64,000 nt of DNA from Minisyncoccota bacterium. Lineage in GTDB: Bacteria; Patescibacteriota; Minisyncoccia; Phycocordibacterales; SBAW01. Shown here in pieces: positions 54,322 through 58,715 of this stretch. Numbering within the stretch: position 1 is the first letter of the stretch; every line of letters begins with the position of its first letter. The stretch lies in contig DASZWM010000002.1 in NCBI GenBank assembly GCA_035546615.1, forward strand, positions 15,460 to 79,459, given 5' to 3'. A model generated the notes under the pieces. That model made no database searches, was not told the DNA's origin, and saw only the letters and a list, made by a program, of their open reading frames with translations. Made by a program: the position numbers and the translations under genes.

Positions 54322-54987
54322 ATGGAATTTATACAGTCATCGAATCCGAGCGAGGGCGCCCAGGCTATGGCGCAGAAGATAGTTGAATCTTTGCGGAAGG
54401 GAAAAGTGCTGTGGCTGATATGCGGCGGCTCGAACGTGCCGCTTTCGGCGGAGGCCATGGATGCCGTACGCGCCGCAGTTTCTGCGGATGAATTGCGGAA
54501 CCTAACGGTCGGCATGACGGATGAGCGGTACGGGCCGCTTGGGCACGCCGACTCCAACTGGAAGCAGCTTGAGGATGTTGGGTTCAATATAGAAGGAGTC
54601 ACGGCTATTCCGGTACTTACGGGAAAGCCGCTTGAAGAGACTGTTTCGGAATATGCTCAGAAGCTCGAAGATGCGCTGCAAGAAGAACCGCTTGTTATCG
54701 CGCAATTCGGCATCGGCGCGGACGGGCATATCGCGGGCATGCTTCCGCACAGCCCCGCGGTCTCAAGCACGGACACTATATACGCATACGAAGCCGCGCC
54801 ATTCACGCGCATTACAATAACCCAGCCGGTATTCAAGAAAATATCCGTCGCGTATGCGATAGTATTCGGCGAGTCCAAAAAAGCCGCCATCGACCGCCTC
54901 AAGAACGAGGACCTTCCGGTTGAGGAAATGCCCTGCCAGTTGCTTAAGCAAATCCCCGAAGCGTATTTTTATACCGACCAGCTTTAA
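54322..54987 (+). CDS. pgl: 6-phosphogluconolactonase
   Basis: LICGGSN, MTDERYGP, and GIGADGHIAGMLP motifs of the Pgl/NagB family. Confidence 0.75.
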   Translation: MEFIQSSNPSEGAQAMAQKIVESLRKGKVLWLICGGSNVPLSAEAMDAVRAAVSADELRNLTVGMTDERYGPLGHADSNWKQLEDVGFNIEGVTAIPVLTGKPLEETVSEYAQKLEDALQEEPLVIAQFGIGADGHIAGMLPHSPAVSSTDTIYAYEAAPFTRITITQPVFKKISVAYAIVFGESKKAAIDRLKNEDLPVEEMPCQLLKQIPEAYFYTDQL

Positions 54988-55024
54988 GAAAAACATCCTT
55001 ACAAACTTGAGAATGTAAGGATGT
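54974..55024. terminator. bidirectional terminator hairpin containing one arm of the arsR-flanking inverted repeat
   Basis: AAAAACATCCTTACAaacttgagaaTGTAAGGATGTTTTT. Confidence 0.6.
54994..55016. repeat. 23-bp inverted repeat, arm A (flanks arsR)
   Basis: CATCCTTACAAACTTGAGAATGT is the exact reverse complement of 55338-55360. Confidence 0.85.
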
Positions 55025-55026
55025 TT

Positions 55027-55332
55027 TTAGAGATTCTGGAAGGATTTTAGGAAGCGGACGAATATCTTACCGTAGGGCGAAAGCCGGTGCTCCACGAACT
55101 TGCCGCGATACTTTTTTGCGATAAGGCCGGCCACATAGAGCCGCCTGGTGTGCTCGCCGATGGTCTTCTCGTTCGCATTAAGGGTCGCCGCAATAGTATC
55201 GAGCGTAACGCCCTCGTGCCGGGCGATAAGAAGCAGTATCTCGATGCGGTAATGATTTGCCATGCCCTTGAGATGGCGTTCCATCTGCTTTGCCGTCTTC
55301 GTATTTTTCATGCGGGAGAGTATACATGACAC
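55027..55332 (-). CDS. ArsR/SmtB-family winged-helix transcriptional regulator
   Basis: HTH NHYRIEILLLIARHEGVTLDTIAATL. Confidence 0.6.
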   Translation of the reverse strand: MSCILSRMKNTKTAKQMERHLKGMANHYRIEILLLIARHEGVTLDTIAATLNANEKTIGEHTRRLYVAGLIAKKYRGKFVEHRLSPYGKIFVRFLKSFQNL

Positions 55333-55337
55333 CCCAA

Positions 55338-55360
55338 CATTCTCAAGTTTGTAAGGATGT
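55338..55360. repeat. 23-bp inverted repeat, arm B (flanks arsR; putative operator)
   Basis: ACATTCTCAAGTTTGTAAGGATG, located 6 nt upstream of the arsR start codon. Confidence 0.85.
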
Positions 55361-55431
55361 GTGGAAAGGGAAGAGGCGGGGCTGGAAGCGTTTTGTGAAG
55401 GAGCCTTAAATTTGCTATCCTCAGATTGTAT

Positions 55432-55502
55432 TGCCCGATCGTCTAATGGTAGGACAGAGGCCTTTGAAGCCTTTAATTGGGGTTCGAATCCCTGTCGGGC
55501 AG
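55432..55502 (+). tRNA. tRNA-Gln (anticodon TTG)
   Basis: 71 nt: acceptor TGCCCGA/TCGGGCA, anticodon loop CTTTGAA, T-arm TGGGG-TTCGAAT-CCCTG. Confidence 0.8.
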
Positions 55503-55533
55503 CAAATGTAGCGAAGCGTAATTTGCGCCCGAA

Positions 55534-55656
55534 GGAAGCAATGGGATTGCTTCCGGCAGGGATTCGAAAGCCGGAGCGGGACCCGCATCAGCAGATGCGG
55601 GAGCGAGGCAGGGTCGTGCGGCTAAAGTTGCGACGGCAACTTTAGAACGCCTGACC
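55534..55656 (+). repeat. tRNA-associated structured repeat, long form (copy L3, downstream of tRNA-Gln)
   Basis: H1 GGAAGCAAT-GGG-ATTGCTTCC, GGCAGGGATTCGAAAGCCGGAGCGGG, a variable hairpin CCCGCATCagcaGATGCGGG, AGCGAGGCAGGGTCGTG, the hairpin AAAGTTGC-GACG-GCAACTTT, and AGAACGCCTGACC. This is followed by CGAATCCCT, a copy of the tRNA-Gln T-arm segment. Confidence 0.75.
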
Positions 55657-55726
55657 GAATCCCTAAGAAGTTTCTAGTTTTCTCTGTCTCTAGGCAGAAT
55701 CACTTTTTGATGGTAAATCTGTCCTG

Positions 55727-57400
55727 ATGCCGTATTCGACTGATATGTCAGTGTATTTAGATTTGGGCGGCGCTTTAGCTGCTTTTGGCCTTTTATTTAC
55801 TGTTTACCAACTTCGGCGACCAAGGTGGGAGGTAATTTTGCGAATTAGAAATAATTGGCAAAGTGATATTTTCTGGATATTAGGTTTTATAGGTTTGTTT
55901 TATGCCCTAGTTGGCGTGCTTGTATCTGAACTCCCAATTAATTCTTTCAACTTTCCGTTTAATACCCCATTACTTTACGAGGTGGCAGCGTACCTATCGT
56001 TTGTAGCTTCACCTCTGTCATTAATATATTTTGCGACCAATGACAAAAAGTTATTTAACGCAAAAACTGCAGAAACTTTCTACGAAGTAATCTTGCAAGA
56101 AATTTCTAAATCTAGTGATGTAAACCTAGATGCGGCATTGGAAATAGTCTTGAGAAACTTTAATGAAATTTGTGATGCAACTCTTCAAAATACAGATAAA
56201 GATTTGCGCTCATACGCAAGGTCAATTTTAGACGTTGTACTAAGTGACGAGTCTGTAGTAAAAGTGCTCACTACCAAGAGGCTTGATGCTTTGCAATATA
56301 TCTTTTATTTAATAAAGGAAAAGAATATCACTCGTGCTCATTCGGGGATAGGTATACCGAGAATTGTAAATAATCTTTTCTTTGACGAAAATTCCTTCCT
56401 CTATAAACAACTCGATAGAAAAGGGTTGGCACTTTCATCAAATATATACACGAGCATTTTTGAATCTCCAGTTATACTCACCAACTTTGATCTGTTTGGG
56501 TACCCGACTATCGGTTATGGAATGAGTAGAGATACTGGCAATGCTGGTATAAGAGTATTTATCAAAGCCTTATCTCTAAGCATTGAAACTTACTTTAAAA
56601 CAGGGAGCGTGCCTCCGAGGCACATTAATAATGGGTTGTCTTACTTAAGCAATATATTTGGAGGGTTGTGTGCAAAAATTGCCATCAAAGAAAATAAAGG
56701 TGTTGATACTAAATCTAGTTTAGAAGATGAGTGGTGGGGCTTACATCAAATAGCCTCCTTTTTAGGACATGATTATATTTTTCTTGCCTATGAAGAAAAA
56801 CTAAATCAGCAAGTTCTGGAAAACGAAAAAACTGCCCATGAGGCTCGATTTGGCTCAAATGCAACTATAAATGAGGGTATTGCAGCTGTTATCTATAAAG
56901 CTTTTGAGCAGCTTTCACAAATTAAAAAAACCACAGACATATATCATACAGTTCTGGAGCTCTTGCATGGAATGATGAATGAGCCTACCTACAAGGAAGG
57001 TTATAGACCGCCTTTTGAAAAGAGACTCTGGCAACAAATCGGTGCAAATGTTGCTAAACGTTATTATCCTGCCGTCGTTAGAACGTATTTAACCTTTGTT
57101 GGGTTCTGTCTTGGCGCAGATGCAAACCAACGACAAGGTTGGATTGGCGAACAAGCGGAACGTATGAGACGACTTTTGTATATTGACCTTAAGCCTTTAT
57201 TTGATAAGAATGAAAAAATGATAAATAAGGAATTTATGAAAGACGTTTTGCTCCCAGATTCCATGTCCTATAAAGATGGTAAATTTACTTATACCTCTGG
57301 ATTCGGAGAAGGTACAACCACTGAAGTAGCACCACCCCCTGAGGGTGCGACATCAGGTTTGGAAGGAATAGATTTAGAGAGTATGCCTCACTTCGTCTAG
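55727..57400 (+). CDS. large hypothetical membrane protein (3-4 N-terminal TM helices, about 440-aa soluble domain), AT-rich island
   Basis: Local GC is far below the genome average; no recognisable catalytic motif. Confidence 0.6.
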   Translation: MPYSTDMSVYLDLGGALAAFGLLFTVYQLRRPRWEVILRIRNNWQSDIFWILGFIGLFYALVGVLVSELPINSFNFPFNTPLLYEVAAYLSFVASPLSLIYFATNDKKLFNAKTAETFYEVILQEISKSSDVNLDAALEIVLRNFNEICDATLQNTDKDLRSYARSILDVVLSDESVVKVLTTKRLDALQYIFYLIKEKNITRAHSGIGIPRIVNNLFFDENSFLYKQLDRKGLALSSNIYTSIFESPVILTNFDLFGYPTIGYGMSRDTGNAGIRVFIKALSLSIETYFKTGSVPPRHINNGLSYLSNIFGGLCAKIAIKENKGVDTKSSLEDEWWGLHQIASFLGHDYIFLAYEEKLNQQVLENEKTAHEARFGSNATINEGIAAVIYKAFEQLSQIKKTTDIYHTVLELLHGMMNEPTYKEGYRPPFEKRLWQQIGANVAKRYYPAVVRTYLTFVGFCLGADANQRQGWIGEQAERMRRLLYIDLKPLFDKNEKMINKEFMKDVLLPDSMSYKDGKFTYTSGFGEGTTTEVAPPPEGATSGLEGIDLESMPHFV

Positions 57401-57402
57401 AT

Positions 57403-57960
57403 ATGAATCCAAACATTTGGTTTTACACTTTTAGTACAGCAGCCCAAGTAATGGCGGCTTTGGCCGGTTTATTTGCAGTATTTGTTGTATATAAGATTCA
57501 AGATTTTAGTCAGCTTATAAAAGACGCCCGCTCTAGTCTGTCCCGGTTGATTCCATACAATTCAGCGAATACGGGCGGAGATACAATCTCTAAGCAGGAA
57601 GTATTAGATATGACTGATAGAGAATTGGTTACTACGCTTGCCGAGTTGTTAGTACTTGAGACATCTCAGAATGGAGCGTTCTTTAGCGGACATTCAGAAA
57701 CTATAGATGGCACAACGATAGCTGTAAACTCGAATACCTACGACTATTTCGCAGCCCTTGTTGATAAAAAGGAAAGAATACTAAAACGTCTGATTTTTGT
57801 CTTGGGTTTAAGTTTAGGAACTATTTGTGTTTGTCTAGTATCATTGGTGCTAATTGACGTGTTATCAAAGTTTGAGTGGTTTATTTGGATGTGTTTGGCT
57901 TTATTTATATACACCCTTTGGACAATCGGAATGGATATTTACAAGATAACCCTAGAGTAA
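57403..57960 (+). CDS. hypothetical 3-TM membrane protein, AT-rich island
   Basis: Starts 3 nt after the previous stop; TM1 at the N-terminus and TM2-3 at the C-terminus flank a soluble loop. Confidence 0.55.
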   Translation: MNPNIWFYTFSTAAQVMAALAGLFAVFVVYKIQDFSQLIKDARSSLSRLIPYNSANTGGDTISKQEVLDMTDRELVTTLAELLVLETSQNGAFFSGHSETIDGTTIAVNSNTYDYFAALVDKKERILKRLIFVLGLSLGTICVCLVSLVLIDVLSKFEWFIWMCLALFIYTLWTIGMDIYKITLE

Positions 57961-57969
57961 TCTTTCTCT

Positions 57970-58293
57970 ATGAAAGGAATAATTATCGAAAATAGTCTCA
58001 AAGACAAAAGTATTATCACCGAAGCTGAAATTATTCGAACTTGGGAAGATGGAAGTTGGAAGTTGCGGGAGGTAAAAGTTTCAACAGAATGGGCTGAAAA
58101 ATTTGGAGGATACTTAAATGATGGACCCTGGTATGTTCACTTTTGGGAATCCGACAGCGACGATGTACTAGTAGTATTTAAAGACAAAAGCTTCTGGATC
58201 AAACATTCGGACAAGAATACTTGGCAAGATGCTATTGCTCATGGAAAGTCGTTACATATACCCGTGGAGCAATTAGACTTTCCTATTGATTGA
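57970..58293 (+). CDS. small soluble hypothetical protein, AT-rich island
   Basis: 107 aa; Trp-rich (WEDGSWKLREV, GPWYVHFWESD). Confidence 0.5.
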   Translation: MKGIIIENSLKDKSIITEAEIIRTWEDGSWKLREVKVSTEWAEKFGGYLNDGPWYVHFWESDSDDVLVVFKDKSFWIKHSDKNTWQDAIAHGKSLHIPVEQLDFPID

Positions 58294-58331
58294 GATTTCG
58301 ATTTCTCCCTTTTATATTATATAATCAAGAT

Positions 58332-58715
58332 ATGAAGTATTTGCTAATCACGGCTTTATTTTTGGTTGTCTTTGTGTTTGCTACTCCAGCAAAGGCCGCA
58401 CCATTAACCCAATCCCAAGTAAATGCAATAATTACTATTATGCAGTCTTTCGGTGTAGATAGTGCTACGATTTTAAATATCAAAACAACACTCTCTAATT
58501 CGACTTCCGCTAAGGTAGAATCCGTCGTCAAAACTACTTTTAAAGGAGTTCCTACCTACGCACAAGTGAAAAGAGAGTTAGCAAAATCACGCAATAAGGA
58601 GGTGACTTATATGGAGAATGGATGTGTATACTCAATAAACCATTTAGTGAGTGAACATATTTTCAAAACACGCGATATGAGTATTCGCGATCTTGCATCT
58701 GGAGCAAGTTGTTAG
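58332..58715 (+). CDS. small secreted hypothetical protein, AT-rich island
   Basis: Signal peptide MKYLLITALFLVVFVFATPAKA. Confidence 0.5.
   Translation: MKYLLITALFLVVFVFATPAKAAPLTQSQVNAIITIMQSFGVDSATILNIKTTLSNSTSAKVESVVKTTFKGVPTYAQVKRELAKSRNKEVTYMENGCVYSINHLVSEHIFKTRDMSIRDLASGASC

Follow-up and report, generated by a model that had tools for sequence, protein, structure and literature searches.

The question raised by this locus is why a single small regulator gene stands between two perfect copies of the same inverted repeat. In an earlier note on the 64,000-nt stretch of DNA analysed here (the window), the repeat upstream of the arsR-like gene was taken as a candidate operator for autoregulation and the repeat downstream as belonging to a bidirectional terminator common to the regulator gene and pgl, while a miniature mobile cassette was named as an alternative. 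We weighed these readings against the window itself and against a large set of related loci.

An exact search of the 64 kb located the 23-mer CATCCTTACAAACTTGAGAATGT at 54994-55016 on the plus strand and at 55337-55359 on the minus strand, the latter interval having previously been given one base off, as 55338-55360. The inverted repeats around the regulator gene are thus real, and by exact search and palindrome analysis the perfect repeat is in fact 24 nt long (ACATCCTTACAAACTTGAGAATGT; left-hand arm 54993-55016, plus strand; right-hand arm 55337-55360, minus strand) and lengthens to 32 nt with 91% complementarity. No further copy of the 23-mer was found in the window at up to three mismatches, and none appeared in 100 shuffles. 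The many dispersed, regulator-unrelated copies that were to be looked for according to the earlier note are hence not seen within the window. Both repeats turned out to be instances of a conserved 36-bp palindromic element. A weight matrix built from 73 upstream sites of relatives gave 56.4 bits for the copy at 54991-55026 (plus strand) and 48.8 bits for the copy at 55327-55362 (minus strand), with no other site above 12 bits in the 64 kb, and the two window copies are spaced 336 nt start to start. Taken together, the exact search, the shuffles and the matrix scan exclude a chance origin of the pair. Rfam detected only tRNAs and noise, for the whole window at gathering thresholds and for the local region at E up to 10, and neither a second family member nor related palindromes were found in the window. 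The element belongs to what appears to be a superphylum-wide family of 36-bp palindromes, which had been overlooked.

The reading frame between the repeats was called mechanically as 101 codons on the minus strand, starting from GTG 55332. As most of the listed homologs are 94-95 aa long and align from the Met encoded at 55311, ATG 55311 is almost certainly the true start, hence the arsR-like gene stands while its reported length does not; the gene covers 55027-55311 (minus strand, stop codon included) and encodes 94 aa. ORFs, profile searches, homolog alignment and a structure model all describe the product as an ArsR/SmtB-like winged-helix protein. The matches to Pfam were under the cut-offs for both MarR (21.7 bits) and HTH_5 (PF01022; 18.5 bits vs a cut-off of 22), and the NCBIfam model of an ArsR/SmtB subfamily, NF033788, gave 34 bits vs a cut-off of 55. 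Because the protein itself stays below threshold though many of its homologs carry precomputed PF01022 hits, we regard it as a divergent branch of ArsR/SmtB. Among solved structures the ArsR-family protein 3f6v came first by sequence (E = 7e-4), ahead of HlyU and ArsR. In the AlphaFold (AF2) model, which has a moderate pLDDT of 66, helices at 7-18, 22-31, 37-43, 48-60 and 79-92 and strands at 64-69 and 72-77 follow the order a1-a2-a3-aR-b1-b2-a5 of the ArsR/SmtB topology. The top PDB matches of this model in Foldseek were AntR, SqrR, SmtB and CadC (TM 0.62-0.67), and the small DNA-organising winged-helix proteins Sso10a-2 and AspA were placed beside them (TM about 0.6-0.67). The protein is presumably a dimer. 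It contains no cysteine, nor do 23 aligned homologs have a conserved Cys or an a5-type D/H/E cluster; no metal, metalloid or thiol sensory site of the a3 CXC, a3N, a5 or reactive Cys pair kind was found.

By word-indexed search 2,106 homologs were obtained; the top 120 all show 76-84% identity and carry source names from Paceibacterota, Uhrbacteria, Liptonbacteria, Sungbacteria and Minisyncoccales; Doudnabacteria and other lineages are added by the record titles of related loci. The 23 aligned homologs share 44 invariant positions, among which are those of the recognition helix (T50, G52-L58) and of the wing, and a library clustered at 50% identity held 278 representatives with E of 1e-3 or better. 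From these searches the regulator appears as a highly conserved single-copy gene of Patescibacteria. Several public MAG records with both the regulator gene and the element, among them L016, L025, L026, L055, L072 and many under 'uncultured Candidatus Saccharibacteria', bear the title 'uncultured Gammaproteobacteria bacterium' or 'Saccharibacteria', which looks like a placeholder or a wrong taxonomic label.

The upstream copy of the element (ACACATCCTTACAAACTTGAGAATGTTGGGGTGTCA, 55327-55362, minus strand) has its first base 51 nt ahead of the ATG and a degenerate right arm. With the start at ATG 55311 the distance from the repeat to the start codon is 26 nt, in place of the 6 nt reported before. 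A consensus scan detected a sigma-70-like promoter at 55319-55346 (minus strand, 10 of 12 matches), made up of the -35 hexamer TTGAGA (55346-55341), a 16-nt spacer, the -10 hexamer TATACT (55324-55319) and 7 nt to the ATG. The copy overlaps this promoter in such a way that the -35 hexamer sits within the centre of the element. As the distance from promoter to ATG leaves no space for a leader or a Shine-Dalgarno sequence, we infer that the regulator mRNA is leaderless or nearly so. Folded as RNA the upstream copy is no more stable than its shuffles (z about 0). No gene reads into it, the neighbour on that side being the divergent tRNA-Gln(ttg) at 55432-55503 (plus strand).

The DNA beyond this tRNA has features of its own. 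The 197 nt directly 3' of tRNA-Gln (55504-55700, plus strand) reach a fold energy of -85.1 kcal/mol (z = -5.1); they contain several perfect hairpins and include an inverted copy of the 3' part of the tRNA (55553-55568 vs 55483-55498). Rfam, searched at E up to 10, has nothing that matches them; they could represent a structured RNA not yet described or what is left of an integration site. From 55700 to 58500 there follows a low-GC island (GC 0.34-0.40 vs 0.55-0.60 around it) with open reading frames at 55727-57400, 57403-57960, 57970-58293 and 58290-58715. None of the four had a PHROG match, the two largest, which were the ones scanned against Pfam, had no match there, and no integration or flanking direct repeats were found around the island, which is probably horizontally acquired DNA.

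To see how the element behaves in relatives we took the 80 best loci from contigs representing one genome per species, the best match being of 82% identity, and aligned their upstream regions. JGI metagenome contigs scanned with a degenerate 30-nt pattern added 120 loci, 48 of them with the regulator gene. The 80 genome and 48 metagenome loci, from many Patescibacteria lineages, supplied 120 regulator genes with enough flank to be assessed. The consensus TAACATCCTTACAAACTTGAGAATGTAAGGATGTTG holds 45.5 bits and 14 invariant positions, is built as three 12-bp blocks (arm, centre and arm), and is conserved at about 79% across the sampled Patescibacteria. It usually begins exactly 50 nt ahead of the ATG; after it come TG, TATAAT and six further bases up to the ATG, and the centre of the palindrome is the -35 hexamer (TTGAGA, in some relatives CTGGAG). 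Both copies were present at 104 of the 120 loci (87%), the upstream copy only at ten, the downstream copy only at two and neither at four. The element starts 50-51 nt from the ATG in 74 of 114 loci, and the downstream copy starts within -2 to +3 of the last base of the stop codon in 77 of 106, with the stop TAA forming the first three bases of the element in 32 of these 77. Most often the element begins 50 nt ahead of the ATG, the downstream copy falls at -2 to +1 nt relative to the stop codon, and the two copies are 335 nt apart when measured between their starts. The bracket thus appears to be a conserved trait of the family and a new observation; a search of the full-text literature, motif strings included, found no relevant earlier description of the element.

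Since the arms are palindromic, the orientation of a copy can be read only from its 12-nt centre. By this measure the downstream copy has the orientation of the gene in 98 cases and the opposite one in 11, and we found no link between this orientation and the direction of the neighbouring gene. The window belongs to the minority of about 10% with an inverted downstream centre, and it is because of this flip that its two copies read as one long inverted repeat. Upstream and downstream copies from different genomes are identical at 25.2 of 32 positions and those from the same locus at 27.25, more than 10 sd apart. The window pair reaches 29 of 32, a value reached or exceeded by a third of same-locus pairs, and since it is so ordinary the perfect 24-mer does not seem to indicate a recent duplication.

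In the window the same evidence bears on the idea, raised in the earlier note, of a miniature mobile cassette, and likewise on that of a segment inverted by recombination between the 24-bp repeats. Perfect 24-bp inverted repeats are what either would have, the neighbours of the unit vary between genomes, and, reasoning from the sequence, a promoter whose -35 lies within the repeat would survive inversion. However, about 90% of relatives have the asymmetric centres direct and not inverted, none of the genes within about 3 kb encodes a transposase or recombinase, and the outer flanks (...TTTAAGAAAA on one side and GTGGAAAGGG... on the other) are not duplicated. A MITE or inverton would be expected to have a target-site duplication and its own transposase or invertase, and the window locus lacks both. 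At 94 aa the protein consists of a DNA-binding domain and lacks a catalytic one, and it occurs as one copy per locus. The evenly high identity of the family (about 80%) and its 44 invariant residues are what purifying selection on a core gene would produce, and partial synteny with mnmA recurs in several lineages. We therefore do not retain the cassette, and consider mobility or inversion extremely improbable. Integron attC-like sites were also rejected from general knowledge, the element being too short, its core sites mismatched and an integrase lacking.

If the element is the regulator's own operator, it should change where the protein changes. We examined eight distant homologs with 36-54% identity, and five of them are bracketed by a different palindrome of their own, in each case with one copy upstream and one at the stop codon. 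The palindromes on both sides of the gene read ATACTTGGGTATGTGAGAGTATG in L205, TTCTTACATTCTGCAGAAAG.CAGAATGTC in L210, ATTATGTCTTTATGCATAAAGACATAAT in L211 and TCTAACATTCTC.AGAATGTTAGA in L212, and in L206 the two are CTATTCTCTTATTCTTGAGAATAAGAGAATAG and CTATTCTAGTATTCTCGAGAATACTAGAATAG. L214 is a partial case of the bracket, while L209 and L215 have the upstream palindrome only. As judged from these loci, the palindrome co-evolves with the protein while the architecture is retained. Because the palindrome changes with the protein in distant lineages, we suggest that the element is the cognate operator, for which the co-evolution is strong indirect evidence. Together with the conserved position, this comparative evidence backs the upstream copy as a candidate autoregulatory operator. 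By position, conservation and co-variation it fits a palindromic operator over the regulator's own promoter, as known from ArsR/SmtB repressors, binding being predicted. A second palindrome type, CATTCCAACATTCTGCAGAATGT, was seen tens of bases past copies of the main family that are not beside a regulator gene (L097 at about 5540 and L135 at about 2975). It resembles the operator of the distant homolog P0130 from L210, and several paralogous pairs of protein and palindrome may coexist in one genome.

The downstream copy (AAACATCCTTACAAACTTGAGAATGTAAGGATGTTT, 54991-55026, plus strand) scores near the family maximum and begins directly after the regulator stop codon, with its asymmetric centre inverted relative to the gene. 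Around it lies a perfect palindrome with 15-bp arms (AAAAACATCCTTACA at 54989-55003 and TGTAAGGATGTTTTT at 55014-55028), placed between the stops of pgl (54987) and of the regulator gene (55027-55029). The convergent pgl gene (54322-54987, plus strand) encodes a 6-phosphogluconolactonase-like protein (Pfam PF01182, E = 6e-24) and its stop is 3 nt ahead of the element. In palindrome analysis and RNA folds the extended hairpin of 54989-55028 has a 15-bp stem between A5 and T5; its fold energy is -18.7 kcal/mol for each strand (z = -4.5 and -5.5), and both strands carry a T5 run behind it. This is the structure of an intrinsic bidirectional terminator, and with strong folds and T5 runs on both strands it is a reasonable reading in the window; stem, T5 runs and fold energy agree with the terminator that had been predicted, and the copy is likely the shared terminator of pgl and the regulator gene. 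Like known bidirectional intrinsic terminators it stands between convergent stop codons. Unlike them, its stem and loop consist of the conserved putative operator sequence, the loop is 10-12 nt long and the stem AT-rich, and because of the last two features a standard terminator scan made no call here.

A terminator role alone is insufficient to explain why the downstream copy is placed exactly at the stop codon. Relatives lend the terminator reading mixed support. In them a strong T-run follows only 10-30% of the copies, and canonical termination was on this ground rejected as the general role of the 3'-end copies. On the sense strand G:T mispairs outnumber A:C mispairs by 93 to 39 in downstream copies and by 94 to 70 in upstream copies, and this G:T excess hints at some selection on an RNA hairpin in the former.

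We also considered that the downstream copy might act mainly as a promoter or operator, for the next gene in relatives and for an antisense RNA of the regulator in the window. Its orientation matches that of the upstream promoter copy in about 90% of relatives, mostly with a co-directional gene following, and behind a small number of copies TATAAT and an ATG do stand at the canonical distance. Yet a -10 hexamer with at least five of six matches at the fixed place, found for 87 of 106 upstream copies, is found for only 7 of 103 downstream copies (orphan copies, those not beside a regulator gene, 10 of 118), and the genes that follow are diverse. The -10 position of the window copy is AGAGAT or TAGAGA, a promoter scan found no site there, and the neighbouring gene is convergent. 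With the -10 so rare, a promoter was rejected as the general role of this copy, and as its main role we hold it to be very improbable.

Copies of the element also occur elsewhere. In the motif-ascertained metagenome loci, 98 of 182 sites are orphans. These occupy intergenic DNA, as a rule within some tens of bases of the stop codon before them. Of the gene pairs around them 43 are co-directional, 15 convergent and one divergent, a distribution that points to a 3'-end element and not a promoter. The window has the two copies at the regulator gene only, but in relatives the orphan copies at the 3' ends of other genes indicate that the element is more than a private operator; its role in the clade seems to be broader than autoregulation. 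Within four 10-20-kb loci centred on the regulator the extra copies are few and mostly near the regulator. The genes adjoining the copies are diverse, and clustering of these neighbours gave only weak recurrences of MnmA, TspO and a DUF7670 membrane protein (4-7 loci each), hence a conserved regulon was rejected.

TspO appears in several of our side observations. It is often the next gene after the regulator gene, and in several relatives a copy of the element lies in frame within the TspO/MBR gene (L034 3079-3114, L203 5192-5227, and also L010 4089 and L035 2786), and its translation there would read ...HPNILENIRML..., placed between transmembrane helices 2 and 3. One further relative has a copy directly ahead of the C-terminal two thirds of TspO. 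Arrays of near-identical elements split by single genes were found in L068 (1933-1968, 2783-2818 and 2920-2955) and in L021 (five in 5 kb). Each copy in L068 has the same flank of about 40 nt (TATTRGTGGATGTAGATGTGAGGGGAAAA...), which suggests local duplication or gene conversion of the element.

The orphan copies just past the stop codons of unrelated genes could be taken to mean that the element is a generic REP-like palindrome or terminator hairpin, which the protein does not recognise and which brackets the gene incidentally. The ratio of convergent to divergent contexts (15 to 1) would agree with this, as would the strong hairpin of the downstream copy in the window and the arm pairing, which in Watson-Crick pairs of 10 averages 8.8 in orphan copies vs 7.9 in upstream copies (8.5 in downstream copies). 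A plain hairpin would however need no invariant bases in loop or stem, yet the pairs 5-32, 8-29 and 11-26 are essentially fixed across the copies. From 21% (orphan) to 38% (upstream) of the copies have seven or fewer of the ten arm pairs, and the half-site types CCTTAC and ACCAAC are often mixed within them. Poor arm pairing and mixed half-sites fit better with independent recognition of half-sites than with a hairpin. Moreover, the element is linked to one gene at fixed positions in 87% of relatives, its sequence shifts with the protein in distant lineages, and the window has no copies beyond the two at the regulator gene. We therefore regard the REP-like reading as improbable.

A further comparison is with REP/RAYT systems (REPtrons). 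Like these, the element is an extragenic palindrome at gene 3' ends with a partner gene flanked by two copies, and the copies are inverted in the window and homogeneous within a genome. Unlike RAYTs, the regulator is not an HUH/Y1 (IS200/IS605-like) transposase and has winged-helix matches only. Within the DNA covered the copies are few, with two in 64 kb and a sparse number in the 10-20-kb loci of relatives, and the element is conserved across phyla where REPs are species-specific, with flanking copies that are usually direct.

The reading we prefer, and consider probable, is that the two repeats are the regulator's own binding sites, one an operator at the promoter and the other a site at the stop codon that doubles as terminator hairpin. 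The anatomy of the bracket, its conserved position and sequence and its co-variation with the protein are established. Binding, repression and termination we infer from them, the cognate site having three supports, namely fixed positions linked to one gene, sequence conserved beyond what pairing demands, and co-evolution. The protein encoded between the repeats would bind both as its cognate sites. The upstream site spans about -51 to -16 from the ATG and holds the -35 TTGAGA of the putative leaderless promoter, hence the bound protein would be expected to shut off its own transcription. The second site, directly after the stop codon, would through its 15-bp-stem hairpin be the shared terminator of pgl and the regulator gene, and might in addition allow looping to the upstream site 336 bp away, a block to polymerase or the insulation of the gene. 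It should be noted that a 36-bp site is long for one winged-helix dimer.

The ArsR/SmtB repressors SmtB, CzrA, CadC, ArsR, HlyU and SqrR have imperfect 12-2-12 palindromic operators over their own promoters. The present regulator resembles them as a small winged-helix protein with the order a1-a2-a3-aR-b1-b2-a5 and with weak, consistent sequence matches, and its long palindromic site likewise overlaps the -35 of its own promoter. It differs in lacking Cys and any a3, a3N or a5 metal-site motif and in falling below the curated thresholds. Its site is 36 bp long (12-12-12), a conserved second site lies at the stop codon with further copies at the 3' ends of other genes, and protein and site are about 80% conserved across the superphylum. 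Among looping repressor systems, phage lambda has cI between OL and OR, and lac and gal have auxiliary operators. The regulator gene stands similarly between its own putative binding sites at near-constant spacing (mode 335 bp); unlike in lambda, lac and gal, the second site lies precisely at the stop codon and also forms a hairpin.

Further, we speculate that the element might be a superphylum-wide, protein-dependent punctuation, in which the copies at stop codons are bound to stop or insulate transcription by roadblock or looping, which would make the regulator gene an insulated, self-limiting cassette. We think this rather unlikely, but if true, a roadblock at the stop codon could truncate the regulator mRNA before its stop and so add a second layer of negative feedback.

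For the window alone the practical result is modest, in that the repeat would be a regulatory and terminator element and not a mobile one. What is new, as far as sequence comparison tells, is the conserved bracket, the 36-bp element conserved at about 79%, and its apparent co-evolution with an ArsR-like protein that has no recognisable sensor site. To our knowledge gene regulation in the Patescibacteria (CPR), which are uncultivated and have tiny genomes with few transcription factors, is almost uncharted. The locus ties one of the most conserved small DNA-binding proteins of the Patescibacteria to a defined 36-bp site, and as the arrangement of promoter operator and stop-codon operator recurs in most relatives and co-evolves in distant lineages, the two make up a predicted protein-DNA pair. 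The element may thereby help to predict promoters and 3'-end elements in the genomes of CPR bacteria.
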